A stretch of 29,598 nt of DNA, taken from positions 1-29,598 of the IMG/VR virus record IMGVR_UViG_3300020045_005943; one strand, written 5' to 3'. The position numbers and the translations under genes were made by a program. Under the pieces are notes generated by a model. The model was not told the origin of the DNA, searched no databases, and worked only from the letters and a program-made list of their open reading frames with translations. Below, piece after piece: positions 4,895-17,714 of the stretch; position 1 is the first letter of the stretch; every line of letters begins with the position of its first letter. Source of the stretch: a virus (Duplodnaviria; Caudoviricetes).

Positions 4895-5258
4895 GGTTTA
4901 AATATTGTTCAATCATGCTTTTTGCCTCTTCAAAGCCGGTAGCAAATTCCGAGTAATACCCCTTTTGCGTAAGCCGTGTTAGTGTTTCGTCCTGCTCTTT
5001 CAGGTGGTCATCTTTTTTTAGGCTGCCATCCTTCCGGTAAGGGCTGACTACTTTTAGTTCCATCAATAGGCCGTGAAAATCTCCACGGGGTTCAAAGATG
5101 ATTAAGTCGGGCAGGCCATTACCACTGCGTAGAGTCTTTGCCTTCTTTGCCTGGCCAATCGTTAACCGCTGGCCGCTGGCCTCGCTGGTGAAGATGATGT
5201 CCGGGTGTTGGACGCGTAACCACTGGCATATCTGTGAATGTAAATGGGCTTCGCTCAT
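4884..5258 (-). CDS. VRR-NUC family PD-(D/E)xK nuclease (resolvase-like)
   Basis: MSEAHLH...GLPDLII...MELKV...EQ motifs. Confidence 0.8.
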   Translation of the reverse strand: MSEAHLHSQICQWLRVQHPDIIFTSEASGQRLTIGQAKKAKTLRSGNGLPDLIIFEPRGDFHGLLMELKVVSPYRKDGSLKKDDHLKEQDETLTRLTQKGYYSEFATGFEEAKSMIEQYLNLDK

Positions 5259-6016
5259 TTCTTAATCGTTAGTGTCGGCTTTTGCCCGTTGATTATCGAA
5301 AGTAAATAAAGTTTCTCTTTGATGGCCGCCTCTAACTTTATGATAATCCGGTCTATGTCCTCTGCAATTGGCTTAATTGGAATGTAAACCATCTTATTCT
5401 TATCCTCTTTCATCCGGTGGTCGTATGTAACGAAATGGCAAAGGGGTGAATCCAGGAAAAGAATATTGCTCATGCACTGCCAATAGTATTCCGGGTATTC
5501 GCGTTTCAAATCCCATTGATCGGTTAACATTAGATAATCAATTTGATTGGCTGAATTGTACGGGCATTTAATCTCCAAAATTTCTTTAGTGCCTGCTATT
5601 AACCGGTCAGGGCTTCCGCCTGCATGGTCACCAAAAGGAACGAAGGCCACTATCTCAAAATCTAATCCTGTTTTTTCTGTGAAGTATTCAGCCGCTATCG
5701 GTTCAAAGTCGTCACCCCAACGGGTGGGGGCGCTGTTCACTTCCTCCGCTGTGTGGCCAGTTAAAGTCTCCGCTACCTTTGATCGAATGTAGGTGGTGGT
5801 TGCTTTTGATAAGATAGTCGGGTCTTCGATGAATTTGGCCGAGCTTCCCTTACCTGTTTTAGGCCTTGCTTTTAGTTCGACCTCGGTCATGGGCCGCGTT
5901 CCTGAACTCATTAGTAGGTGCATTTGGGAGGACGTAAATCGCCCGGCCCGTATGTCAAGCCATATCTGTGAGCCTTGCTCACCTTGTTGGGCTAACTCTA
6001 ATTCGAAGGCATCCAT
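5255..6016 (-). CDS. YqaJ / lambda-exonuclease family protein
   Basis: W..R.GRFTSS, WGDDFEP, GGSPD, LEIKCP and YYWQC motifs. ATG at 6016 preferred. Confidence 0.88.
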   Translation of the reverse strand: MDAFELELAQQGEQGSQIWLDIRAGRFTSSQMHLLMSSGTRPMTEVELKARPKTGKGSSAKFIEDPTILSKATTTYIRSKVAETLTGHTAEEVNSAPTRWGDDFEPIAAEYFTEKTGLDFEIVAFVPFGDHAGGSPDRLIAGTKEILEIKCPYNSANQIDYLMLTDQWDLKREYPEYYWQCMSNILFLDSPLCHFVTYDHRMKEDKNKMVYIPIKPIAEDIDRIIIKLEAAIKEKLYLLSIINGQKPTLTIKK

Positions 6017-6020
6017 AATC

Positions 6021-6203
6021 CTAATGATTATCAGCGAATCCACCCTCCCACGCGCCAGGCTCATTCATTGCCCGTTCGCCTGCATCTTCATCGGCATTAT
6101 CTTTTAGCCGTTGCACAACCTTTTGCAACTCTTCCCAACCCCCGTAATAGTGGGTAATCTCTTTTAAATCGGCCTCTATCTCGTTTTCGATGTCGTTTTT
6201 CAT
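6021..6203 (-). CDS. Hypothetical protein
   Basis: 60-aa acidic ORF between the annealase and exonuclease genes. Confidence 0.55.
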   Translation of the reverse strand: MKNDIENEIEADLKEITHYYGGWEELQKVVQRLKDNADEDAGERAMNEPGAWEGGFADNH

Positions 6204-6862
6204 TGGATTTGTTTTTGTTTGGCTCCGTATAACATGGCTTTCTGATCTTCGGTTAAAATGAAATTGGACTCCGCTAATGGGATGGTTTCCAATTGCCCGT
6301 TTTCAACCCTCTCAATGGCCGCCAATAGCGCCTTGTCTGAAATGGGCTTTAAAGGCGGTTTAAAGACATCTTTATTTTTCCGGTTAATATCCCTGCCAAA
6401 AACCTTTCCGAGCGATTGGGCGGCATTCTTGACGCATTCAGCCTTTAATTTCGGGAAAGCTAAATCTAAGGCGTTGGGCTTCTTGTTTTCCGGGTTCAAA
6501 GCAAACAGATTTCTATCCTGTTTTGACATCCGGTTTTTGTCCTCCTCGCTCAGGGAGTCAACCATGATAATGATTGACCCGGCACCCGTGCGCCTTATTG
6601 GCGTTCTCGTCACCGGGTGCAGCACTACCAAATCAATTGATCCCTGAACCTCGTTAGTAATGGCCGACCATTTAAAATTTTCAGTTGACCATAAGCCCAA
6701 AAACAATTCATCGAGGGTCATTTCAACGAATGAAATTGGGAGGTAACTAGCCCGACCATCGGGGGTTTTATCGAACTCACGCGGGTCCGGTTCCTTGTTT
6801 AGCTTGGTTTGAAAGTCTTGTAGTAAGAGTTTCAACTTTTCATCATGCCCGAAATCTTCCAT
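6200..6862 (-). CDS. Rad52/Sak-like single-strand annealing protein
   Basis: SYLPISFVE..LDELFLG.W and KAECVKNAAQSLGKVFGRDIN motifs; paired with the YqaJ exonuclease. Confidence 0.7.
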   Translation of the reverse strand: MEDFGHDEKLKLLLQDFQTKLNKEPDPREFDKTPDGRASYLPISFVEMTLDELFLGLWSTENFKWSAITNEVQGSIDLVVLHPVTRTPIRRTGAGSIIIMVDSLSEEDKNRMSKQDRNLFALNPENKKPNALDLAFPKLKAECVKNAAQSLGKVFGRDINRKNKDVFKPPLKPISDKALLAAIERVENGQLETIPLAESNFILTEDQKAMLYGAKQKQIQ

Positions 6863-6910: not shown

Positions 6911-7072
6911 TCATATCAAGATACGCCAAACGTTTTTAAATCCGTTAAAAATTGGCTTTAATTGCCCGTCATATTTACCGGCAAATATGGCCGCCTCGCT
7001 GAACTTATCAGCCGTATAAGTCCTAACGATAACCCCGTGAGGTAAGTAGCTGGTGCAAGTGTGAACGATCAT
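6911..7072 (-). CDS. Small hypothetical protein (53 aa)
   Basis: MIVHTCTSYLPHG...; ATGA overlap with 7069-7317. Confidence 0.4.
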   Translation of the reverse strand: MIVHTCTSYLPHGVIVRTYTADKFSEAAIFAGKYDGQLKPIFNGFKNVWRILI

Positions 7073-7317
7073 AACCGTATATCAATGTTTTCAGACACGC
7101 CCAACTCATTGAAGTAAAAATAAATATCATCCTTCAACGATGAAAAGTCCGTAGCCTTGCGCCCGCGTAGGTTAAGCCCTGACCGGTCGAGGATGTTATT
7201 GACCAGTGTAACATCAATTGTAACTAGCGTTTCGCGGTCAGCTAAATAAGCGATAACCTCATGGGTGTCAATCGTTTGCTTTTCGTAAGCGTAGGGGGGT
7301 GATGTCCAGTTGTTCAT
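7069..7317 (-). CDS. Hypothetical protein, first gene of the leftward operon
   Basis: 82-aa ORF next to an AT-rich divergent intergenic region. Confidence 0.55.
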   Translation of the reverse strand: MNNWTSPPYAYEKQTIDTHEVIAYLADRETLVTIDVTLVNNILDRSGLNLRGRKATDFSSLKDDIYFYFNELGVSENIDIRL

Positions 7318-7436
7318 TTTGTGGCGTTGTTTAAGTATTTGTCAGAAAGGCGTTGTTTTGTTGACGGGTCAAAATAGCAACGAAGTTTTTTTAATTCCTA
7401 TTTTTTTCTAAATTATTTTATATCTATTTTTACACC
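7318..7436. promoter_or_regulatory. Divergent promoter region
   Basis: AT-rich spacer where gene orientation switches from minus to plus; exact promoter boxes are uncertain. Confidence 0.5.
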
Positions 7437-7622
7437 ATGAAAACAGCACTACCGGAAACACGCGGCAGGAAAGCCCGTAAATCTTTCAGTATTAAACCAG
7501 GTGAATTGAAAAAATTTCCTATTAAAGACGGCCCCGGCCTTCGCTACCGGGCGCGTGCGGCTAAGTGGGTAATATCAACCAGGACAATTAACGGGCAACT
7601 TTTAGTTTTTAGGGAGTCATGA
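7437..7622 (+). CDS. Small basic, probably DNA-binding protein
   Basis: 61 aa, Arg/Lys-rich, first gene of the rightward unit. Confidence 0.55.
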   Translation: MKTALPETRGRKARKSFSIKPGELKKFPIKDGPGLRYRARAAKWVISTRTINGQLLVFRES

Positions 7623-7708
7623 GGAACACTGCACTAAAACAAAGCCTGAAAGTTTAGGGATTGGCGCCTCACCTGAACAGGAGCAAGATTATTCTACTCA
7701 TTACAATT

Positions 7709-8095
7709 ATGACAATCGAAGACTTAGTAAAAGAACAAATTGAACAACTTGACATAAGAGAGTTAGTTCAAGGTGAAATCAGGAAACTAATTTCTGATGA
7801 GGTGCAACGCGAAATCGTTAAAACCACAAAAGAGGAAATTCAACGAGTGATTAAAAATGAAGTTGAAATTGCTCTATCAAAAGGCGTTAACACCGATGAC
7901 GGATGGGGGAAACGGGAAAGTTATACTTCATTTGAAGAGATGTTCAAAAAGTTTTTCAAGGAGGCTCTTAACAACCAATACGAGGTTAAGAAGACTATTG
8001 AAAACCACGTTAAGGACACAACGAAAAAACTTGTTGACGAAAAAACAAAAGACATCGTTGAAGCCCTCAAAAAATCTCTTGGCGCGGGTGGCTGA
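7709..8095 (+). CDS. Hypothetical helical protein (array remnant)
   Basis: ATG at 7709. The gene ends in GCGCGGGTGGCTGA followed by an orphan AT-rich right arm. Confidence 0.7.
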   Translation: MTIEDLVKEQIEQLDIRELVQGEIRKLISDEVQREIVKTTKEEIQRVIKNEVEIALSKGVNTDDGWGKRESYTSFEEMFKKFFKEALNNQYEVKKTIENHVKDTTKKLVDEKTKDIVEALKKSLGAGG

Positions 8096-8163
8096 TTTTA
8101 AATTAAAAATTTGCACGGTGAACAGTTGAAGCAGCTACTCAAAACCTCACTACGAAGCACTAA

Positions 8164-8675
8164 AGGCTTTTTTATTTTTTAGCGTGGATTTGGAAATGTG
8201 AATTATTATGTGGATCTTTGTTACACAAAACATTAAATAATACACTTATGAAAGTAGCTTATGAATGGTGTTACGAGGTAACCGATGAACATGGGGATAT
8301 TATTGATAGCAACTTTGCTGATAAATTATCCGACTTTTCAAAAAATGAAGATGGCGAACTATTACTTGTTAGAAATGAGGGCGATGAAATTAATGGAGTT
8401 GAGGACAGGCAATGGGCTTACGTGAAGGATGGTAAATTACCCTTTAAGTTTTCAGATGCCAGAAACGTTGAGATTGATATTGATGTTCCGAAACGATTCT
8501 TTAAAGAACTTGAAAACTACCTGAAATGAAAATACACCAAACATTCAGGCTTGATTCTGATTTAATTGAAGTAGCCAAAAGTTACGCTGAAAAAGAAAAC
8601 CGTACTATTTCCAATGTTTATGAAACTGCTGTTATTGAGTATTTAAAAGCGCGTGGGCAAAAAATAAAAAAGCCT
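8164..8675. repeat. Inner inverted repeat pair 1 (17 bp, perfect)
   Basis: AGGCTTTTTTATTTTTT 8164-8180 / AAAAAATAAAAAAGCCT 8659-8675. Confidence 0.9.
8248..8529 (+). CDS. Hypothetical acidic protein
   Basis: MKVAYEWCYE...; ATG at 8248 follows an A-rich leader. Confidence 0.7.
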   Translation: MKVAYEWCYEVTDEHGDIIDSNFADKLSDFSKNEDGELLLVRNEGDEINGVEDRQWAYVKDGKLPFKFSDARNVEIDIDVPKRFFKELENYLK

Positions 8676-8690
8676 CTCACCAAACGTTAA
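8526..8690 (+). CDS. Ribbon-helix-helix (CopG/Arc-like) protein, 54 aa
   Basis: MKIHQTFRLDSDLIEVAKSYAEKENRTISNVYETAVIEYL fits the RHH pattern; ATGA overlap. Not in the ORF track. Confidence 0.7.
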   Translation: MKIHQTFRLDSDLIEVAKSYAEKENRTISNVYETAVIEYLKARGQKIKKPLTKR

Positions 8691-8694
8691 TATG

Positions 8695-9069
8695 AAATTT
8701 TAAAACAAAAAATAGCGATGGCACATGGAATGAAAATTAAGGATGATGAAAAAGCGGCTTTTATAAAAATGAATGGTGGAATATTATGGTTCATTGAAAA
8801 TAAAAGCACCGGACTTTGGTGGCATCACACCCTTGACTTAAAGGACAATCTCCCTTGCACCTGTAGAAAATGTTACCCAACCGGCTATCCATTTAAAAAA
8901 TACAAAGACGGATGGACAAATGATGTTCAAAAAGCTGATGCCTATCTTACAAAGGAACAGGCAGAACATGGAATATTCTTTTACTATACCAATGAACCAG
9001 AAACAAATTTAATAGCCACCGAACATGAATTTATACCAAGCGCGTAGGGGATTTTTTGTTTTAAAATTT
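8695..9069. repeat. Inner inverted repeat pair 2 (19 bp, perfect)
   Basis: AAATTTTAAAACAAAAAAT 8695-8713 / ATTTTTTGTTTTAAAATTT 9051-9069. Confidence 0.9.
8718..9047 (+). CDS. Hypothetical protein
   Basis: 109 aa, exactly filling inverted repeat pair 2. Confidence 0.75.
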   Translation: MAHGMKIKDDEKAAFIKMNGGILWFIENKSTGLWWHHTLDLKDNLPCTCRKCYPTGYPFKKYKDGWTNDVQKADAYLTKEQAEHGIFFYYTNEPETNLIATEHEFIPSA

Positions 9070-9088
9070 TATGCGCACGAACTACGCT

Positions 9089-9274
9089 AACGGGAGGTGC
9101 TTATGCAGTGCGATTAATTAAACTAAAAATTAAAATATGAAACACAAATTCACACTAACGCAAACAATTGAGTTGATAAGGATGAACGCTCATAGCGGCA
9201 CAAAAGAAAATTTAGAAGCGATTATCGACCTGACATACGAAGCAGAAAAATTAGCATTACATAAGCACAATGTT
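9089..9274 (+). repeat. attC-like hairpin A1, with a start codon in its loop
   Basis: TAAC-G...GTGCTTATGCAGTGC 9097-9111 / GCATTACATAAGCAC 9254-9268...T-GTTA. Confidence 0.75.
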
Positions 9275-9358
9275 ATGCCATCGTTGCCCGAATTAGACGC
9301 AGACTCTAACTGTGACCACAAAATTTTATATGAAAGACTTATTGAAAAAAGCGTTTGA
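9137..9358 (+). CDS. Hypothetical protein reading through the GTT core
   Basis: ...LALHKHNV|MPSLP...; GTT at 9272 is the Val codon. Confidence 0.55.
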   Translation: MKHKFTLTQTIELIRMNAHSGTKENLEAIIDLTYEAEKLALHKHNVMPSLPELDADSNCDHKILYERLIEKSV

Positions 9359-9557
9359 GGCTGGCGAAAGAAAGGCACACGCTCAAGATAGCACTGAGGG
9401 AATTTTAGGATTCGATACCGAACCTGATTTTGAAACATGGTACGAGCAATCGCAACAACCTATTGTTAGCGGCAGTGGCGACTTAATCCAATTCGCTATG
9501 TATTTAACGGGGCATGATGAAGACACCATTAAACAGATGTACCGTGATTGGCACTGA
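9330..9557 (+). CDS. Hypothetical protein reading through the GTT core
   Basis: MKDLLKKAFEAG...QQPIV|SGSGDL...; GTT at 9465 is the Val codon. Confidence 0.65.
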   Translation: MKDLLKKAFEAGERKAHAQDSTEGILGFDTEPDFETWYEQSQQPIVSGSGDLIQFAMYLTGHDEDTIKQMYRDWH

Positions 9558-9625
9558 GCCATCGCAGGAATGTTGCAAAGAATATATGGACAAACACAAA
9601 AAACTATCCAGCGGCAATGCGCCAT

Positions 9626-9695
9626 AACGTGCAAGTGCTTGTGTCCGGTTTGCTCCAGACACAAGACAAAGGCAAACTGGCACAAGCACGGTGTT
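9626..9695 (+). repeat. attC-like hairpin A2 (short, empty)
   Basis: AAC-gtgcaa-GTGCTTGTG(T)CCGGTTTGC-loop-GCAAACTGGCACAAGCAC-ggt-GTT, with one extrahelical T. Confidence 0.85.
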
Positions 9696-10212
9696 ATAAG
9701 CTGGCCGGGATGAACCGATGAACGAACTTAAAATAGATGAACTGAATTTTTAAACTTAACCAAGAAGCGCGGGCTTTTGAAACACCGAACGACATGAACG
9801 AAGAAGAAATTAAAAACGCTGTGATTGAATCAGTAACCATTGATATGGGTGACCGTGGATTGCTAACCGCTTGGCTACATTTGAACTATGGCGGAAGCGG
9901 CCAGGGCTTTGGCGGATTCTCACTTTACCTACCAAAATCATATACTCATTTTACAGAGAAGGGAGATTTTGCCGGACACTTTATTTTCAGATGCATGGAG
10001 ATTGCGGGCGTTGAGAAATGGGAACAGATGAAAGGCAAAACCATAAGGGTAAAATCAAGCCATAGTAAAGTGGAAGCCATCGGGCATATTGTGAAAGACG
10101 ACTGGTTCAATCCTTCACAGGACTTCACCCGTATGAGTGCGGTGGGTGGTTAAGTTTAAAAATTCTCCGCAGACACTGACCTATGAAACACGTCCCCCGG
10201 CTTGCTTATAAC
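9693..10212. repeat. GTT...AAC module with nested inner repeat pair 3
   Basis: GTTATAAGCTGGCCGGG 9693-9709 / CCCGGCTTGCTTATAAC 10196-10212; inner perfect 19 bp pair at 9744-9762 / 10147-10165. Confidence 0.9.
9794..10153 (+). CDS. Hypothetical protein
   Basis: 119 aa (KNAVIESV...GQGFGG...IGHIVKDDWFNP), filling inner pair 3. Confidence 0.8.
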   Translation: MNEEEIKNAVIESVTIDMGDRGLLTAWLHLNYGGSGQGFGGFSLYLPKSYTHFTEKGDFAGHFIFRCMEIAGVEKWEQMKGKTIRVKSSHSKVEAIGHIVKDDWFNPSQDFTRMSAVGG

Positions 10213-10333
10213 GAATCGGTGCTTGTTTAGTGCCGTGATTAACAGATTGAACTAACTTAAAAACACAAATATGACAACAACTAAAAAACCATCCACGAAG
10301 CGCAAAGCTAAGGCATTGAACAAGCACAATGTT
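10210..10333 (+). repeat. attC-like hairpin A3, with a start codon in its loop
   Basis: GTGCTTGTTTAGTGCC 10219-10234 / GGCATTGAACAAGCAC 10312-10327, between AAC and GTT. Confidence 0.85.
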
Positions 10334-10516
10334 AGCCACAGTGCCGACACACCGAAAGTATATATAGGGGGTGAAGAAGTTACCGACAAAGACACAAAAG
10401 CAATACTTCTGATACATTATGCAATGACCATATCAACACCCCGCATGAGAAAGGCAAACTTGGAATTTGTGTTGAGCCGTCCAAAGTACAAGTTGAAAGT
10501 CACAGAATCTTATTAG
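10271..10516 (+). CDS. Hypothetical protein spanning hairpin A3 and the next module
   Basis: MTTTKK...LNKHNV|SHSA.... The stop falls just before the right arm. Module arms: GTTAGCCACAGTGCC 10331-10345 / GGCATTGTGGCTAAC 10518-10532. Confidence 0.7.
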   Translation: MTTTKKPSTKRKAKALNKHNVSHSADTPKVYIGGEEVTDKDTKAILLIHYAMTISTPRMRKANLEFVLSRPKYKLKVTESY

Positions 10517-10587
10517 AGGCATTGTGGCTAACGCATTGTGGGTTTGGTGATGTGAATAATGACTATGCCGGGAAAAGTTCTGAGGAG

Positions 10588-10719
10588 ATGAAGGAAGATA
10601 TAAAGGTTCTGCTATCCTTCACAAAACCAGAATCAATTACTGCCATGATTCACTCACTCATTGAATTGCAAAAAGCTGTGTTCGATGGTCACTTAGAAGT
10701 TCCCGAGCGGGTCGGCTGA
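10588..10719 (+). CDS. Probable 3' gene fragment or short hypothetical protein
   Basis: Frame is open from 10522; ends in GAGCGGGTCGGCTGA plus an orphan right arm. Confidence 0.4.
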   Translation: MKEDIKVLLSFTKPESITAMIHSLIELQKAVFDGHLEVPERVG

Positions 10720-10872
10720 TTTAGTTTAAAAATTGTTTCGCACGAACTGAACTACGAAGAGAATGACAGAGGCTGAATTTATCCAATTTGCCGAAAACAG
10801 AATATCAGGTAAAGAGTGGCATAACACTATTGATTCAGGCTATTCTCTGTTTAAGTCAAAAAAAGAAAAACT

Positions 10873-11091
10873 ATGACACAACAATATATAACCCATCTTA
10901 ACGAATGCATTAAGGCAAATAAAGCGCATTCTATTGACCCATTTGAAGTATTCGAAAGAATGAAAAAATCAGCAATCGAAGCATATATTAAAACACGTAA
11001 TGAAGAAAATGAAGAAGGGAACATGGGGAGGCAAGCGAATAAGCACGAAGCCAAAGAAAGAACCAACCAAAGTTATCCGCGTACCCATTAG
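10873..11091 (+). CDS. Hypothetical protein
   Basis: 72-aa ORF whose 3' half overlaps the 11000-11131 gene. Confidence 0.45.
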   Translation: MTQQYITHLNECIKANKAHSIDPFEVFERMKKSAIEAYIKTRNEENEEGNMGRQANKHEAKERTNQSYPRTH

Positions 11092-11131
11092 CAAGTTACC
11101 GGCTGTACTCAAGGCTCTTGGTAAAGTTTAG
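11000..11131 (+). CDS. Small basic putative DNA-binding protein, copy 1 (43 aa)
   Basis: MKKMKKGTWGGKRISTKPKKEPTKVIRVPISKLPAVLKALGKV; paralog at 15259 differs largely by synonymous or conservative changes. Confidence 0.7.
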   Translation: MKKMKKGTWGGKRISTKPKKEPTKVIRVPISKLPAVLKALGKV

Positions 11132-11159
11132 GATGTGTCCAACTTAATAAAATAACAAC

Positions 11160-11297
11160 ATGAAAAAGAAACTTTCAAAAACCACAAAATCAAGGCCATT
11201 AACTAAACACAATGTTAGCGGTATACCAAATATGTATCCCACAGAAGCCCGCTTTGACAAAAGAAAGAATAGCGTTCAAGTTATCACTAAACGGTAA
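11160..11297 (+). CDS. 45-aa peptide reading through the GTT core
   Basis: MKKELSKTTKSRPLTKHNV|SGIPN...; the stop lies within the right arm GGTAATTGCCGCTAAC. Confidence 0.5.
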   Translation: MKKKLSKTTKSRPLTKHNVSGIPNMYPTEARFDKRKNSVQVITKR

Positions 11298-11415
11298 TTG
11301 CCGCTAACGTTTGCCGCTTTATGCAGTGCCTACACGAACTTAACTATGAAATGCGAACCTTTTTTTGAATTAAATTTTTTAAGCGTGGATTTTTGAATTT
11401 AAAACTTTAACAACT

Positions 11416-12381
11416 ATGAAAAAGTATCCGAGTATAGAACAATTTAGAAATGTGATTAGAAGCGTAAAAGCTATTCACGACTATCAAGGCAAGGACGAGG
11501 AAGGTAAAGCCATTTACCAACACAAGGATAATTACCCAACCCTGACCTTTAGAGGCACAGTAAAACTTCATGGGACGAATGCCAGTGCAGTAAAATACTC
11601 AGATGGCAGAATTGAGTTCCAATCAAGGGAAAGAGTTTTATCATTGGAAGATGATAACGCTGGATTCATGGCTGCAATGGTTGGTAAAGACTTGAACATC
11701 TTGTTTAACCAGTTTTCACCAAAAAACTATGTTGCTATTTATGGCGAATGGTGTGGTGGAAATATTCAAAAAGGAATTGCCATAAACGGACTTGGTAAAA
11801 TGTTCGTAATTTTTGGAGTGATGGTTGATGATGTTTGGGTTGACTTACCGAGTGACCTACACTCAAATGAAAATAGCATCTACAATATTTTACAGTTCCC
11901 AACTTATGAAGTTGAAATAGACTTCAATCACCCTGAGTTAGTGCAGAATAAAATAATTGAAATGACTATTTCCGTTGAGGAGTGCTGCCCGGTTGGGAAA
12001 TTCTTTAATAAGGAAGGCGTGGGTGAGGGTATAGTTTTTACTTGCCTGAAAAATCAAGAACTGAAATTTAAATCTAAGGGTGAGAAACATTCCGCATCGA
12101 AGGTAAAAACACTTAATCCGGTTGATGTTGAGGCTATAGCAAGTATCAACGAATTTGTTGAATTAGCGGTTACTGAAAATAGATTGGAACAAGGAATTTC
12201 CTTTTTCAGGGAAAACAATATTGAGGTGGAAGCTAAAAATACTGGGCAGTTTTTAGGCTGGGTTGTAAAAGATGTCTTGAAAGAAGAGAAAGACACCTTA
12301 GAAGCAAGTGGATTGGATGAGAAAAAAGTGAAAAACGCAATAGTAACAAAAGCTCGAATCTGGTTTCTGAATTGCATTTAA
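11416..12381 (+). CDS. RNA ligase, Rnl2-like nucleotidyltransferase
   Basis: Motif I KLHGTN, QSR, III YGEWCG, IIIa FVIF, IV EGIV, V KFKSK, and a C-terminal VTENRLEQ...DVLKEE domain. Confidence 0.85.
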   Translation: MKKYPSIEQFRNVIRSVKAIHDYQGKDEEGKAIYQHKDNYPTLTFRGTVKLHGTNASAVKYSDGRIEFQSRERVLSLEDDNAGFMAAMVGKDLNILFNQFSPKNYVAIYGEWCGGNIQKGIAINGLGKMFVIFGVMVDDVWVDLPSDLHSNENSIYNILQFPTYEVEIDFNHPELVQNKIIEMTISVEECCPVGKFFNKEGVGEGIVFTCLKNQELKFKSKGEKHSASKVKTLNPVDVEAIASINEFVELAVTENRLEQGISFFRENNIEVEAKNTGQFLGWVVKDVLKEEKDTLEASGLDEKKVKNAIVTKARIWFLNCI

Positions 12382-12420
12382 TGTGCTGCGGAATAACAGA
12401 TAAACTTTGATTGAAACACA

Positions 12421-12841
12421 AAAAATAAATTTAAACTTTTTAGAGCGATGGCAATTAACGTAAATGAATTTAGAAAAGGTAACTATGCAAACTACTCCTA
12501 TCAAGGAACGGATGTGATTTTTTACGGTTACAACTATTCCGATGGATGCTTTACCGACTTTTCATCAATACCAATTGAGCCGGAAGAACTTGACCCAATA
12601 CCATTAACTGAAAAATTGTTAATACAATTGGGATTTATTAAAAAGTGGGATGATTATAAAGGTGAGGTTGAACAATTTGAGAAGGGTTTGATTACTTGGT
12701 CAAATGGCCAGTTTAGGATTGGAACTTATTGGGTATTTGATTTTGAAATACATCACCTTCACCAATTACAAAATCTTTACTTCTCAATTACAGGAACCGA
12801 ACTTGTATTGAGCGGGGAGGAAAAAGTTTAAATTTATTTTT
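12421..12841. repeat. Inner inverted repeat pair 4 (21 bp, perfect)
   Basis: AAAAATAAATTTAAACTTTTT 12421-12441 / AAAAAGTTTAAATTTATTTTT 12821-12841. Confidence 0.9.
12448..12831 (+). CDS. Hypothetical phage protein
   Basis: 127 aa (PIPLTEKLLIQLGF...HLHQLQNLYFSITGTEL), filling pair 4. Confidence 0.8.
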   Translation: MAINVNEFRKGNYANYSYQGTDVIFYGYNYSDGCFTDFSSIPIEPEELDPIPLTEKLLIQLGFIKKWDDYKGEVEQFEKGLITWSNGQFRIGTYWVFDFEIHHLHQLQNLYFSITGTELVLSGEEKV

Positions 12842-12895
12842 CCTTCAATGACCTGCGCCCTGTCCGATGGAATACGAACTAAGCAGCTTGCATAC

Positions 12896-12969
12896 AACGC
12901 TCTCTGTGTTTGTGAGCGGTTTTGCTCCACACGAAAGACTACGGCAAAACTGGCACAAACACAGTTGTT
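12896..12969 (+). repeat. attC-like hairpin A6 (short, empty)
   Basis: AAC-gctct-CTGTGTTTGTG(A)GCGGTTTTGC / GCAAAACTGGCACAAACACAG-tt-GTT. Confidence 0.85.
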
Positions 12970-13059
12970 AGCAGCAGTAGCTTCCACTGAACTTAATTAA
13001 ATGCACAAGAAAAAAGAAAAAATTTTAGCAGGGATTTTGAAACACTAAACTATAAAATT

Positions 13060-13401
13060 ATGGATGGAAACTTAGCAATGGCAAACTCAATTGTAAATCA
13101 AACTGAGGAACAAGCCAACACACCGAACTACCCAAAAGGAACGACCAAGGAACAATGGGACAGATACGCGATTGACCTGAAAGCCCATGAGGAACGAGTG
13201 GCACGAGAGAAACCAATTGAGCCAGACCATCTTAAATACAAAGAACAAAAATATAAAGGTGAATGGACTTTTATACCGGGGTATTTAGAGCGGTATTCAA
13301 ATGATTGGGACGCTTACCAAAAGAAACTATCTGAATGGGAAATGATGTGTTCGTGTGATGCCCCCAACAAGCCCGGTTACTACAGAGCAAACAACGATTG
13401 A
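13060..13401 (+). CDS. Hypothetical protein
   Basis: 113 aa, inside pair 5. Confidence 0.75.
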   Translation: MDGNLAMANSIVNQTEEQANTPNYPKGTTKEQWDRYAIDLKAHEERVAREKPIEPDHLKYKEQKYKGEWTFIPGYLERYSNDWDAYQKKLSEWEMMCSCDAPNKPGYYRANND

Positions 13402-13402
13402 T

Positions 13403-13612
13403 ATGCCAAGAGTAGAATTATCTGAAGCCGATTTAGAATGGGTAACCGAAGCCATTGGTGAGGGCTATACCAAGAAACAATTAGCGAAACAATATGGTGT
13501 ATCGGTGCCGACTCTTAATAGATTACTAAAGGGCGAATCTATCATTTGCGGTAAATGCAAGATGCTTGGGCCGTTAGCTCCGTGTGATGAATGTGGGTTA
13601 AAACTAATTTGA
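13403..13612 (+). CDS. HTH protein with a C-terminal CxxC/CxxC motif
   Basis: YTKKQLAKQYGVSVPTLNRLL HTH; CGKC...CDEC. Confidence 0.7.
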   Translation: MPRVELSEADLEWVTEAIGEGYTKKQLAKQYGVSVPTLNRLLKGESIICGKCKMLGPLAPCDECGLKLI

Positions 13613-13695
13613 ACTCAATGCGCGGTGGCAAAATTTTTTCTTTTTTCTCGTTCAAGTTTGCACGAACTCAGCTACGAAGAAAGGCTATTGCTGCT

Positions 13696-13764
13696 AACGG
13701 GCGAATGTTTATGACGGTTTGCTCCACACGGAAGACAAAGGCAAACTGGCATAAACATGGTGTT
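13696..13764 (+). repeat. attC-like hairpin A7 (short, empty)
   Basis: AAC-gggcga-ATGTTTATGACGGTTTGC / GCAAACTGGCATAAACAT-ggt-GTT; a relative of A2 and A6 with compensatory changes. Confidence 0.85.
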
Positions 13765-13847
13765 ATCTGCTGGCCGGTTACACTGATAAACTTAACTATG
13801 AAACACACAAAAATTTTGAATTAAAATGCCGAAGGGCGGATGTATTT

Positions 13848-14054
13848 ATGACACTAATAGAAGCATGGTATCGAAGACATTTTTGTGAGACTACCAGTTG
13901 GTATGCAGGTAATCCAGCACTTGGAACTGAGTTGATGGACATACCTTCACAGAACATGAAGTACATCTACGTTGGAAAAGGAAAGATTTGGATTAAAAAG
14001 GACGTAAGTAAACTCATGCGCAAATTGAGAGAATCAAAAAGACCAATATTCTGA
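13848..14054 (+). CDS. Hypothetical protein
   Basis: 68 aa, coupled (TGATG) to the next gene. Confidence 0.65.
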   Translation: MTLIEAWYRRHFCETTSWYAGNPALGTELMDIPSQNMKYIYVGKGKIWIKKDVSKLMRKLRESKRPIF

Positions 14055-14410
14055 TGACTACAGGTTATGAATTATTAGCCGAACAACTACACGGTAGAAT
14101 TAGGGCGGCAAAAAAGGAATACGTTATATGTGCAGCTAATTGGTATAAAGTGCCGACTTCAAAAAGCGAACACCTACCACAAAATATTGGCTACGGTATT
14201 GTTGTTTGCGGCAGGAGGCACCACAATATTTTTGCCACGGTAGCTAAAATAAGTGAGGACTTTATGCATGATACTAAATCAATGTGTGAGCAAGGGTTTA
14301 TGACTTCAAAAGATAGATGGGTTGACAGAAAAGAAGCTGGGCAAATAGCCTTTGAAGCTGGGCAAACGACTGAATTAAAAACATGTCTTTTTTCGGAAGA
14401 TTTATACTAA
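14054..14410 (+). CDS. Hypothetical phage protein
   Basis: 118 aa (VCGRRH...QGFMTSKDRWVDRKEA...LFSEDLY). Confidence 0.8.
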   Translation: MTTGYELLAEQLHGRIRAAKKEYVICAANWYKVPTSKSEHLPQNIGYGIVVCGRRHHNIFATVAKISEDFMHDTKSMCEQGFMTSKDRWVDRKEAGQIAFEAGQTTELKTCLFSEDLY

Positions 14411-14503
14411 CCCGCATTGCGAATGGGGCTGGGGCATTTTAATTCAAAATTTTTGCTCACTGAATGAACCTATGAAATGCGCTCTGTCCACCGGCTTGCA
14501 GAT

Positions 14504-14592
14504 AACGACCAAGTGTTTAAAGCGTTTGGCGCTTCAAAGCTACGCCCCGTCCACGGAGGGCAAAACCGCCAAATGATTTTAAACACGGTGTT
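14504..14592 (+). repeat. attC-like hairpin A8 (short, empty)
   Basis: AAC-gaccaa-GTGTTTAAAGCGTTTGGCG / CGCCAAATGATTTTAAACAC-ggt-GTT. Confidence 0.8.
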
Positions 14593-14780
14593 ATGCACAG
14601 TGGCAACGTGGGAACTTTTTATGAGCAATAGGGGCTTGCGCAGCTTGCCTCTATTGCGGTGAAACCCGCTTTTTACGCTGATTTGAGGGGTCTAAAAAAT
14701 AATTCAAATATTTATCTTGAAAGTGTAACAAGTTCAAGTTATTAGCGTATATTTACATAACAATTAAAACAAACAACGCC

Positions 14781-14912
14781 ATGACAACCTCAAAAAAATC
14801 AACCAAAAAAGAGACAGTAAAAATCTTCGGACAGACTGTAACCGTAGGAACTAAGGAACATGCCCGGTTAGTTTATCAACAAAAACTGTTTGCTCAAAAT
14901 GGTGACTACTAA
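14781..14912 (+). CDS. Small hypothetical protein (43 aa)
   Basis: MTTSKKSTKKETVKIFGQ..., after an A-rich leader and a promoter-like TATATTTA (14748-14755). Confidence 0.55.
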   Translation: MTTSKKSTKKETVKIFGQTVTVGTKEHARLVYQQKLFAQNGDY

Positions 14913-15045
14913 GCTAACGATAAAAGAAATAGGAAGGCTTTCAAAACGGAGGCTTTCCAAATACATTGAGGATATTACACAAACTCCAATTTGTGCTGAT
15001 GTTAATTACTGCAAAGCCCTGATTGAATTATGGATGCAGAAGTAA
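14899..15045 (+). CDS. Small hypothetical protein (48 aa)
   Basis: MVTTKLTIKEIGRLSKRRL...; overlaps the upstream stop region. Confidence 0.45.
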   Translation: MVTTKLTIKEIGRLSKRRLSKYIEDITQTPICADVNYCKALIELWMQK

Positions 15046-15055
15046 TCCATTTAAG

Positions 15056-15304
15056 ATGAAAATCCAACACGCTAGGAGACGTCCACAGGTGCTAGGGTGG
15101 TGCCGCTCGTTAGTGCGGCACCTTTTTTCAAAAATCATTGCAGTCAGATGGTGGAATAATCTTCCAAGACTAACCCAAATTTCATATAATTATAATGTGT
15201 TTGGAGCGCCCGATTTAGGCGAAACCGATGAACTAAGCAAAAAAGATATTATAAAAATATGGGAACTAAAAAGAAAAAAGGAACATGGGGAGGAAAGCGA
15301 GTAA
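15056..15304 (+). CDS. Hypothetical protein
   Basis: ATG at 15056 in the frame of track ORF 15023-15304; contains a terminator-like hairpin. Confidence 0.45.
   Translation: MKIQHARRRPQVLGWCRSLVRHLFSKIIAVRWWNNLPRLTQISYNYNVFGAPDLGETDELSKKDIIKIWELKRKKEHGEESE
15099..15128 (+). terminator. Intrinsic terminator-like hairpin
   Basis: GGTGCCGC-tcgttagt-GCGGCACC followed by T6. Confidence 0.55.
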
Positions 15305-15393
15305 GCACGAAACCAAAGAAGGAGCCGACTAAAGTCATGCGGATACCGATTAGCAAGATTGGGGTTATACTCAAGGCTCTTGGAAAGGCTTAG
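15259..15393 (+). CDS. Small basic putative DNA-binding protein, copy 2 (44 aa)
   Basis: MGTKKKKGTWGGKRVSTKPKKEPTKVMRIPISKIGVILKALGKA. Confidence 0.7.
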   Translation: MGTKKKKGTWGGKRVSTKPKKEPTKVMRIPISKIGVILKALGKA

Positions 15394-15457
15394 GAATTGA
15401 GCGCGGCACGTGTGGCCTTTGCAAGTGCCTTGCTACGCTCTGTCCGCCATTGTGCAT

Positions 15458-16047
15458 AACGCTTGGTGTGTTTATACAGTGCGATTATTAACAGATGAAC
15501 TTTCAACGAAGTAGTAACAAATTTTAATTTAAAAAGCAGGGAGGGGCTTACCCAACATTTAAAGTTATGAAACAATCCAACTACACATTTGCGGAAGGAT
15601 TCTATGGAACTCCGGCAATTGCAGCCAAAGCAAGAGGCGCTAAAATGAAAGCCTTTGATTGGGATAAGGCAGCCCAAATAATAAAAGAAAGGTTTGCCCA
15701 ACATCCCGATTTAAGTGCAGAGGCAGGACTTCAAGGAGACTGGAATTATACAGGTGGGGTAATCTTTGAAAACGGCAAACCGACCAAAGAAAACTATACA
15801 TACCTATCATCAAATTGGGCTGCACCAACTTTGATTTTGAGCTGGGATGGTAATGAACAAGAGGAGCTTGAATGTTCAACTGAGGCCAATGAGAGATTTG
15901 ACTCAGATAGCAAATGGGATGAAACCTCTTTGGGTATTCTTGGGATAACTCTGTAATTCATCGTGCGGCTGGTGATTTTTAAATTAAAATTTGCACGGTG
16001 AACTATCCACAACGCACTGAACTAAGCATTGTATAAACACACTTGTT
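15458..16047 (+). repeat. attC-like hairpin A9 with a whole gene in its loop (inner pair 7)
   Basis: GTGTGTTTATACAGTGC 15466-15482 / GCATTGTATAAACACAC 16026-16042; inner perfect 18 bp pair at 15518-15535 / 15976-15993. Confidence 0.85.
15567..15956 (+). CDS. Hypothetical protein
   Basis: 129 aa (FDWDKAAQIIKE...AGLQGDWNYTGG...SSNWAAP). Confidence 0.8.
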   Translation: MKQSNYTFAEGFYGTPAIAAKARGAKMKAFDWDKAAQIIKERFAQHPDLSAEAGLQGDWNYTGGVIFENGKPTKENYTYLSSNWAAPTLILSWDGNEQEELECSTEANERFDSDSKWDETSLGILGITL

Positions 16048-16108
16048 GTATGCTGGCCGCCACCGCTTTTAAAAGGATTAGAGAGACTTCGGGCGGCTTG
16101 CATACAAC
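16045..16108. repeat. Empty GTT...AAC module next to the putative attI-like site
   Basis: GTTGTATGCTGGCCGCC 16045-16061 / GGCGGCTTGCATACAAC 16092-16108. Confidence 0.85.
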
Positions 16109-16148
16109 TATACCATTGAGAAATATTTCGTAAATCAAATTTAATCCG

Positions 16149-16156
16149 TATCTTTG
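16149..16156 (+). promoter_or_regulatory. Bacteroidota -7 promoter element for the recombinase
   Basis: TATCTTTG matches TAnnTTTG and lies 4 nt before the ATG. Confidence 0.6.
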
Positions 16157-16160
16157 AATC

Positions 16161-16988
16161 ATGGATACACGGACTAAATTCGAGAATTACATGGTTCTCA
16201 GAAACTTTGCGGCCAATAGCATCACAAGCTACTTATCAGTATTTGATATAGTCGTTTCTGAGGATGAAGAAATATTCAGTCGAAGCCAGGATGAAATAAT
16301 TACATACTTAGCGAAAAAGATTAAGAAGCAAAACCTAAGCGCTTCTTATGTGGCTCAGTTCGTGTCCGTGTTCAATATCGTTATTAAACAAATTTTAAAG
16401 CGAACAGATTCGATTAAGATACCAAGACCAAACAAACCTATTATACAACCAGACATATTAACTACTGAGGAAATAATCAAGATGCTTTCTTGCATAACCA
16501 ATATTAAGCATAAGGCTATAATTTGCTTAATGTACGCCACTGGAATAAGGGTTAGTGAGGTTTGTAATATGCGAATCAACGATATTGACAAGTCAACCAA
16601 CTGCATAAAAATAAGACAGGCAAAAGGAAAAAAAGATAGGGTTGCAATGTTAGACCCAAATCTATTAAACGTACTGAGGGATTACTTTGTATCGTACAAA
16701 CCAAACGTTTACCTGTTTAATGGAGCTAAAGGTGAAAAGTATTCTAGCCGGAGTATTCAAAAAATGGTAACAGATTGCGCTGCAAAAGCAGGCATTAGAA
16801 AGCACATCTCAAGCCACTCAATGCGTCATAGTTGCTTTACTCAGTTAGTAAAAGACGGAACGGATATTAGGTATATTCAAAAACTGGCCGGTCATAAGAA
16901 CATAAACACAACCGCCCGATACTTGCAAATAGCTGACATGGATATTATTGAAATGAAAAGCCCATTTTCTAATCTGAACTTGAAATGA
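16161..16988 (+). CDS. Tyrosine recombinase/integrase (XerD/IntI-like, N-terminal SAM-like domain)
   Basis: Catalytic motifs ATGIRVSE (R), AKGKKDR (K), HSMRH, LAGH and TTARY (Y); 275 aa with no arm-binding domain. Confidence 0.95.
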   Translation: MDTRTKFENYMVLRNFAANSITSYLSVFDIVVSEDEEIFSRSQDEIITYLAKKIKKQNLSASYVAQFVSVFNIVIKQILKRTDSIKIPRPNKPIIQPDILTTEEIIKMLSCITNIKHKAIICLMYATGIRVSEVCNMRINDIDKSTNCIKIRQAKGKKDRVAMLDPNLLNVLRDYFVSYKPNVYLFNGAKGEKYSSRSIQKMVTDCAAKAGIRKHISSHSMRHSCFTQLVKDGTDIRYIQKLAGHKNINTTARYLQIADMDIIEMKSPFSNLNLK

Positions 16989-17188
16989 GATACACAAGTA
17001 TAACCCGATATGCCAAATTAGTAGGCATAAATCGAGAGTCAGTCTATAAACGAATTAAGGCAGGATCAGTAATACTATTAGAAGATTGCGATGTGCCAGT
17101 GGTAGATTTAATGCAAAGTAAAGGAACAATGAACAGAAATGATTGGTCTAAACCAAAGGCACCTGATCTACCAAATTGGGCACGTTAG
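16985..17188 (+). CDS. Small HTH protein (excisionase/RDF-like)
   Basis: SITRYAKLVGINRESVYKRIKAG; ATGA-coupled to the recombinase. Confidence 0.65.
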   Translation: MRYTSITRYAKLVGINRESVYKRIKAGSVILLEDCDVPVVDLMQSKGTMNRNDWSKPKAPDLPNWAR

Positions 17189-17231
17189 AAGCCGTGGAAA
17201 GATGACGCGCAATAAGTGGAAGGATAGAGCG

Positions 17232-17714
17232 CTACTTGCGCATCATACGGTCTAACATCTTTTGCTTTTCGTGGCTCCCCTGACTTGTTCCGCGATGAAA
17301 ATTAATTGACGTTCCCAGGTAACCGCCCAACGTTCCAAACCCTACATAGAATAATTCGTGGTTTTCTTCTGGGACGGTGTGAAAAAATATCATTGAAAGC
17401 ATTACGAGGAAAGCGATTAACAAAAGAAGGTCAATAATGTAGCCTACGTTTTTAGCTAACCAAGATGAATTTTCACTTTGTTGGATAGTTGCATTGCTAT
17501 CCCTTGCGCTTTTCGTGTCTGCTAACTGGAGCTCCATTTCCTTAACAGCGCTTGCCTCCATCGCCTCCGCGTGCCGATTGATCTCACTATCAATCTTTAG
17601 CTGTGCCTCCAATGGCGCTATTTTGTTTTCGCCAACTTGCTGAATGATGTCTTTGGCAGAATCGGCAAGGCCTTTGAGGCCGCCTGAAAAAAGTCCTTTT
17701 AAGTTTAAGCTCAT
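17232..17714 (-). CDS. Holin-like membrane protein
   Basis: D..SAR motif followed by two hydrophobic helices; coupled to the endolysin. Confidence 0.65.
   Translation of the reverse strand: MSLNLKGLFSGGLKGLADSAKDIIQQVGENKIAPLEAQLKIDSEINRHAEAMEASAVKEMELQLADTKSARDSNATIQQSENSSWLAKNVGYIIDLLLLIAFLVMLSMIFFHTVPEENHELFYVGFGTLGGYLGTSINFHRGTSQGSHEKQKMLDRMMRK

Follow-up and report, generated by a model that had tools for sequence, protein, structure and literature searches.

The described systems closest to the locus analyzed here are the integrons, with their recombinase IntI and their attI and attC sites. In the accessible text of the sources concerned, the recombining strand of attC is marked by purine (especially G) enrichment and by G:T pairs (PMC5027507), attC arrays and clusters of attC sites lacking integron integrases (CALINs) are carried by phages, including Polaribacter phage CALINs (PMC9892861), and the de novo formation of integron cassettes is described as largely unknown (PMC5371416). 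The DNA under study, referred to throughout as the window, is the whole 29,598-nucleotide (nt) stretch of IMG/VR virus record IMGVR_UViG_3300020045_005943 (Caudoviricetes), a tailed-phage contig with genes for replication on the left and for tail, head completion and lysis on the right, in which an array of small plus-strand open reading frames (ORFs) at ~7.6-16.1 kb is followed by a 275-residue tyrosine recombinase (16161-16988). As in integrons, units of one or two genes lie between YAAC...GTTR hairpins, a tyrosine recombinase stands beside a terminal half site, a strand bias is visible in G.T pairs and purines, and ORF boundaries are tight. Unlike in integrons, the recombinase lacks the IntI insertion, and all cargo ORFs share its plus strand and read towards it rather than away from it; the cassette ends are complementary for at least 15 bp outside the 7-bp core and add a private second helix as well as G tracts; and the DNA surrounding each cargo, here termed the platform, supplies stop and sometimes start codons. 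XerA/XerC-like recombinases (PDB 4a8e, 5hxy) share a full-length match and the catalytic RHRY residues with the enzyme, which lies next to a hairpin array and would presumably not act on a dif site. Phage mosaicism generated by Rad52-like annealing proteins, as presented in the accessible text of PMC3945230, likewise involves exchange at short diverged homology, and the window encodes a YqaJ exonuclease and a possible Rad52-like protein; in contrast to that process, the homology found here spans 5-10 nt, less than the quoted minimum of 23-27 bp, and is tied to a hairpin platform. Nested arms and G tracts are not mentioned in the accessible text of PMC9892861, nothing on arms or tracts is added by that of PMC8352920, PMC8618304 and PMC8946536, and no description of nested arms, G tracts or junction mapping was found in a literature search for which subscription journals lay mostly outside coverage and supplements were excluded.

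Within the array, attC-like hairpins alternate with cassettes whose ends are complementary over ~15 bp. Hairpins of the attC type, comprising the YAAC/GTTR core, a short unpaired spacer and an inner stem, were located by script at five sites in the window, and the fold agrees. A complete unit reads, in order, GTT outer stem, purine-rich bubble, AT-rich arm, G tract, leader, gene, G tract, arm, bubble and AAC outer stem, with the bubble motif repeated directly on both sides. We give about an even chance to the reading that the G-rich tracts form the constant inner borders of a nested hairpin platform around the cargo, and that they mark the joins of a likely replacement of coding sequence, namely where the tract starts on the right and beyond the tract, usually close to the start codon, on the left.

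Twelve inverted repeats were detected in the window; the seven that score at least 17 all fall in the array, and all seven present a G-rich tract directly inside both arms. In 5/7 a GCG trinucleotide lies no more than 9 nt from the left arm (background 6.3%, binomial P = 2e-5), and in 7/7 GCG followed by GG lies no more than 15 nt from the right arm (background 2.7%, P = 1e-11), the P values being optimistic because the motif definitions were chosen post hoc. The motifs and nested hairpins are a real feature, far above chance. A preliminary description of this DNA had listed 15 such motifs, all of which are exactly where it placed them, together with the C-terminal tails GAGG, SAVGG, ERVG, SGEEKV and PSA, each followed by a stop, which are present in the translations. 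Its proposal that right arms are preceded by GCG and a G-rich stretch holds for every pair in the window. The motifs that it gave for the left arms, AGCG or a variant, are in place; the AGCAGGG instances at 13027 and 15535 contain no GCG. The list left out the best arm pair of the window (13808-13830/14433-14455, with tracts GAAGGGCGG and GCGAATGGGGCTGG), and three of its motifs (8082, 10707 and 11382) sit at orphan arms without a partner among the repeats found.

The conservation of these tracts was assessed in related loci. A query with the single recombinase protein retrieved no locus from viral contigs; an alignment of 44 recombinase homologs used as query retrieved 80 viral and 53 metagenomic loci, and searches with two attC-loop patterns yielded one true relative (L001/L006). 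At least two att-like sites are present in 46 of the fetched loci, and in the 15 loci listed a YAAC closes the array directly before the recombinase, with non-hairpin DNA after it, and is a putative attI. Among 139 AT-rich arm pairs near att-like sites, the sequence is G-rich inside both arms in 44, inside one arm in 12 and inside neither in 83 (Fisher p = 3e-23, computed on rows that come from related platforms and are not independent), and C-rich inside both arms in none. Removal by eye of five of the 44 as likely chance pairs (L018 8752, L028 9543, L035 2574, L045 2164, L050 7811) left 39 units, seven of them from the window. GCG is present on the left in 15 of these, on the right in 24 and on both sides in 11, with GTG in its place in 16 left and nine right tracts; GG is present on each side in all 39, partly as a result of selection on G content. 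Since GCG is variable and GG general, the conserved feature is the G-rich tract. The GCG motif named in the preliminary description is not the conserved element. A pattern search in 401 genomes of one phylum returned no matches but is uninformative, as the pattern fits only 1/44 units. Platforms fall into families that share the same arms and carry unrelated cargo. By eye, homologs of the window ORF at 9794-10153 (L145, L149, L165, L186) seem to occupy simple cassettes of the TAAC type in other phages, where arms and tracts are absent. Between att sites there are also cassette-like segments of 77-139 nt that lack a full gene (L016 7783-7888 and 14 short units); in some of them, an ATG within the att site opens a short gene fragment.

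The position of the right join was approached through cargo replacement and protein homology. Contigs of one sequencing run, designated X1, carry the arms of the window with other cargo, and joints were defined there by local alignments with a short side of 24-52 letters and a likeness of 85. Of seven joints that skip the cargo, five resume at 8649, 9040, 9038, 10136 and 13622, or 0, 0, -2, -3 and +2 nt from GCG, and the remaining two, in the unit with an arm at 13808, resume at the arm. The gap was measured for one joint, at 295 other letters, and two more are filled according to record coordinates (~476 and 296 letters). In the family of ORF 12448 (150 homologs), residues E118-L119 are 97% conserved and alignment occupancy, 93% at the GCG codon, is down to 35% after two more residues. 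In the family of ORF 9794 (119 homologs), identity is 77% at M114 and 11% at the GCG codon; the two closest homologs with a different tail have Ala at that codon (12/94 overall), and the tail AVGG is found, among the matches listed, only in one 93%-identical protein. Six of 15 homologs of ORF 7709 end in LGA-stop and the window protein in LGAGG-stop, which implies that homology reaches 5 nt into GCGCG and that the stop was replaced. Loci encoding ORF 7709 homologs were too distant (30-40%) to place the join. Tails vary naturally in these families, and the absence of a tail alone is therefore weak evidence. Across the 39 units, 25 ORFs have lost their native stop and continue through the right tract; of the other 14, 11 end no more than 12 nt from it and three no more than 17 nt. 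The expectation of the preliminary description that homology should cease at GCG is borne out on the right side, where three cargo families end at or one residue past the GCG codon, mostly without tails, but not on the left, except possibly in units that read AGCG-ATGG. At the level of sequence comparison, the evidence supports the right tract as a real join between cargo and platform.

On the left side, the X1 joints end at 8191, 8720, 8723, 9794, 13055, 13851 and 13852, which is 3-25 nt past GCG or the tract. Six of the seven lie within ~5 nt of an ATG, and one lies 5 nt before a very short ATG-TGA frame. Similarity continues for 12-25 nt beyond the tract in four of them, and for 35-60 nt past it in platform families, sometimes into a common N-terminal peptide. 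The ATG is located in or upstream of the left tract in 7/38 scorable units, five times as AGCG-ATGG, and in these five the join may possibly lie directly after GCG. A leader, TATTTATAT, is common to many large-phage cargos (L014 8610, L026 9337, L030 5258, L042 252, L047 8608 and others), which share the N-terminal peptide MxxLRKFIxTTIRE(Y/F)LNE followed by unrelated sequence; in those cargos the left join therefore falls inside the coding region. In DNA methyltransferase cargos (L008 9150-9935, L016 8950-9935, L028 7900-8765, L067 200-900) the start codon lies in the platform and the frame runs through the left arm and tract.

The features of the window are as follows, attC-like hairpins being located by repeat search with additional evidence in brackets:

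5255-6064, minus strand: YqaJ exonuclease from the ORF scan, a candidate helper for joining (putative link)
6200-6862, minus strand: possible Rad52-like annealing protein, likewise a candidate helper with a putative link (no more than a lead, from a cluster at 0.94 in which 11% of members have PF04098)
7709-8095, plus strand: cargo ORF ending LGAGG-stop, running through the right tract
8082-8112, plus strand: right G tract GCGCGGGTGG and orphan right arm
8164-8187, plus strand: left inner arm and tract AGCGTGG (repeat search; X1 joint at 8191)
8649-8675, plus strand: right tract GCGCGTGGG and right arm, read through by ORF 8526-8690 (X1 joint resumes at 8649)
8695-8721, plus strand: left arm and tract AGCGATGG, containing the ATG of ORF 8718-9047 (X1 joints at 8720 and 8723)
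9040-9069, plus strand: right tract GCGCGTAGGGG, which contains the stop, and right arm (X1 joints resume at 9038 and 9040)
9088-9278, plus strand: attC-like hairpin (TAAC...GTTA) with a long loop (sequence)
9625-9696, plus strand: attC-like hairpin (fold)
9693-10212, plus strand: complete nested cassette with outer stem 9693-9709/10196-10212, bubbles, arms 9744-9762/10147-10165, tracts at 9766 and 10139, and ORF 9794-10153 ending SAVGG-stop (X1 joint 9794 to 10136)
10209-10336, plus strand: attC-like hairpin
10707-10734, plus strand: right tract GCGGGTCGG and orphan right arm; ORF 10522-10719 ends ERVG-stop
11359-11388, plus strand: orphan left arm and AGCGTGG, 5' of the RNA-ligase ORF 11416-12381
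12382-12391, plus strand: TGTGCTGCGG 3' of the RNA-ligase stop, fused directly to the left bubble of the next cassette (sequence); a likely deletion between two GCGG motifs
12421-12841, plus strand: cassette with arms 12421-12441/12821-12841, tracts at 12444 and 12812, and ORF 12448-12831 ending SGEEKV-stop
12895-12970, plus strand: attC-like hairpin
12967-13698, plus strand: complete nested cassette with two ORFs, arms 13008-13026/13630-13648, tracts AGCAGGG at 13027 and GCGCGGTGG at 13620 (X1 joint 13055 to 13622)
13695-13765, plus strand: attC-like hairpin
13762-14506, plus strand: complete nested cassette absent from the preliminary description, holding the arms 13808-13830/14433-14455 and tracts given above (X1 joints 13851 to 14431, 13852 to 14433 and 13807 to 14456)
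15457-16048, plus strand: attC-like hairpin with an inner unit in its loop, arms 15518-15535/15976-15993, tracts at 15535 and 15965, ORF 15567-15956
16045-16112, plus strand: final short hairpin, then the attI-like CAAC/TATA half site at the end of the array (YAAC then non-hairpin DNA in the listed relatives)
16161-16988, plus strand: XerA-like tyrosine recombinase without the IntI insertion (profile, alignment and structural-database matches)

At 8095-8163, 8676-8694, 9070-9091, 10735-10760 and 12382-12420, two successive cassettes run together, the right bubble or tract of the first leading straight into the left bubble of the second, with loss of the att site; these chimeric junctions are likely deletions between directly repeated motifs. 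A mini-ORF of 43-44 codons is present in two copies that are 81% identical (11006-11133 and 15268-15395). The first copy is cut at GGATGTG and fused to the right half of an att-like site, where an X1 contig instead continues with a G tract and hairpin, as does the second copy.

The best full-length structural-database matches of the recombinase are the two XerA/XerC-like structures named above (4a8e, E = 3e-32; 5hxy, E = 1e-30), and its RHRY residues are invariant across the 44 homologs. Query residues 174-197 span VchIntIA 179-245, leaving the region between patch III and box II, where integron integrases carry their specific insertion, ~43 residues shorter; against TIGR02249 the protein scores 150 bits in two stretches, for a cut-off of 265. 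Its best phage match is from Polaribacter phage Leef_1 (35%), and its two best genome matches are from Mesonia and Bacteroidales. Directly 5' of its ATG, TATCTTTG (16140-16160) resembles the Bacteroidota -7 promoter element. Based on these matches and on this motif, the bacterial host would belong to the Bacteroidota.

In 204 stems, mismatches on the coding strand comprise 216 G.T versus nine A.C. The strand bias of integrons is thus present, in the excess of G.T and in 44 G tracts versus no C tracts, and the favored strand here is the coding strand. An intact 596-nt stretch folds at -93.3 kcal/mol on the coding strand versus -79.9 kcal/mol on the other, with outer stem and arms formed, and three platforms folded without cargo have no consistent strand bias (-30.3/-27.4, -29.5/-31.2 and -33.4/-33.0). 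This pattern would be consistent with an integron-like array in which the genes are inverted relative to the entry site.

Under the reading in which the tracts mark joins of coding-sequence replacement, the XerA-like recombinase would move whole cassettes at AAC/GTT as folded single strands, with an entry site presumably beside the recombinase; no excised circle was seen in the contigs of X1. New cassettes would arise when a folded, already filled platform swaps its loop for foreign coding DNA, with exchange homology possibly provided by a few G-rich nt on the right and by the AT-rich leader or ATG on the left, and selection would afterwards retain full-length, in-frame genes. Candidates for the joining enzyme are the recombinase itself or a phage annealing protein. 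Several observations weigh against this scheme. At 5-10 nt, the tracts offer less homology than the 23-27 bp that the accessible text of PMC3945230 gives for Red-beta pairing, and no recombination was observed. The X1 joints rest on short local alignments from one run, and a conserved tract makes similarity begin at its edge under any mechanism. Homologs with available DNA have at most 73% protein identity, none close enough for a base-level join, and the proteins ending in LGA-stop come without DNA context and could be cassette-derived. Finally, 98/156 cassettes without inner arms have no tract on either side, and 127/136 scorable cassettes without both tracts still end at the arm. Cassettes without tracts are thus equally tight at the ORF ends, and tracts are therefore not required for tight ends.

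These last figures also fit purely structural tracts, acting as unpaired purine-rich loops that favor folding of one strand, with the joins brought next to them by selection on genes and later trimming deletions. Such a role is in line with the G/purine enrichment and G:T pairs that the accessible text of PMC5027507 describes for attC and that are seen here, with the direct repetition of the bubble motif on both sides, and with the deletions between repeated motifs visible in the window (12382-12391). It also agrees with a third stem found inside the tracts in ~8 units (p = 1.5e-4; p = 0.22 in a shorter test), where the tract is therefore an internal loop and not a join, a further point against the replacement scheme. 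A recombination site inside the cargo that pairs with the left leader to form this third stem was considered and rejected, as it applies to a minority of units and not to most units of the window. However, trimming alone does not predict that 25/39 genes lose their own stop to the tract, that donor-like ends match the tract, or that cassettes without arms are enriched in G at the 3' end, where the last 11 nt are G-rich in 50/156 against a background of 16%, compared with 18/156 two windows upstream. We hold a purely structural role to be rather unlikely.

The preliminary description had proposed a single-site insertion, in which an empty arm-AGCG-GGG-arm hairpin was filled at one GCG and a copy of the motif was left on each side. 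The right joins at GCG agree with it, as do the five units in which AGCG is directly followed by the cargo ATG and where X1 joints terminate on that ATG or slightly past it. The 1.98 Mb of fetched loci (201 sequences) yielded no empty hairpin, the only hits being an unrelated repeat in L086 and one chance match; given the sampling, this absence is not proof. None was found among 18 matches of one left-arm pattern (partner arm 511-982 nt away in ten, one of them a duplicate, doubtful in one and none in seven), among four matches of a two-tract pattern, none of which has complementary arms by eye, or among three re-examined X1 joints. A target-site duplication was tested and rejected, the left and right tracts of one unit being no more alike than tracts of different units (permutation p = 0.98), and the flanks of the two tracts of one unit are likewise no more alike than flanks across units (p = 0.15). 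In addition, left similarity runs past the tract, by the 35-60 nt of platform families and the 12-25 nt of four X1 joints, and GCG occurs on both sides in only 11/39 units. This makes insertion at one GCG very unlikely, and the earlier interpretation is partly supported and half right. The L086 repeat is a separate short hairpin (716, 3207, 3506, 4418, 6579) with AT-rich arms and a AACGTGCGGA loop, present in both orientations; an L086 hairpin with a GTGCGG loop was discarded as an empty unit because, by eye, no att stem or bubble surrounds it.

An RNA route would have the fold act in the transcript, with arms and tracts serving as signals for processing or template switching and with reverse transcription of ORF-bounded RNA giving rise to cassettes. 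It would fit the identity of folding and coding strand and the close tracking of start and stop codons by the joins, but is very unlikely given that no reverse transcriptase is encoded among the 40 window ORFs scanned (the contig is partial), that Rfam has no match within 7000-17300, that some cargos have two ORFs or a likely promoter, and that an array inverted relative to its entry site explains the strand bias equally well. No RNA sequencing run holding the window is listed; one DNA run is listed, with 0.05 of the words, a result that bears on neither expression nor habitat.

Beyond the placement of the joins, we advance as a doubtful, tentative proposal that the nested hairpin serves specifically to make cassettes: an enzyme of the Xer-like integron system would join foreign coding DNA, from the start codon to just before the stop, at the G tracts of a folded single strand. 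The length and conservation of the platform allow comparison to place joins between cargo and platform to within a few bases, and cassette genesis becomes testable with one small recombinase, hairpins that are defined and a tract that is defined. Phage genes acquire new ends, and sometimes new starts, from non-coding platform DNA. If the platform is indeed dedicated to making cassettes, these arrays would keep hundreds of readable capture joins and would offer the first direct assay of cassette creation.

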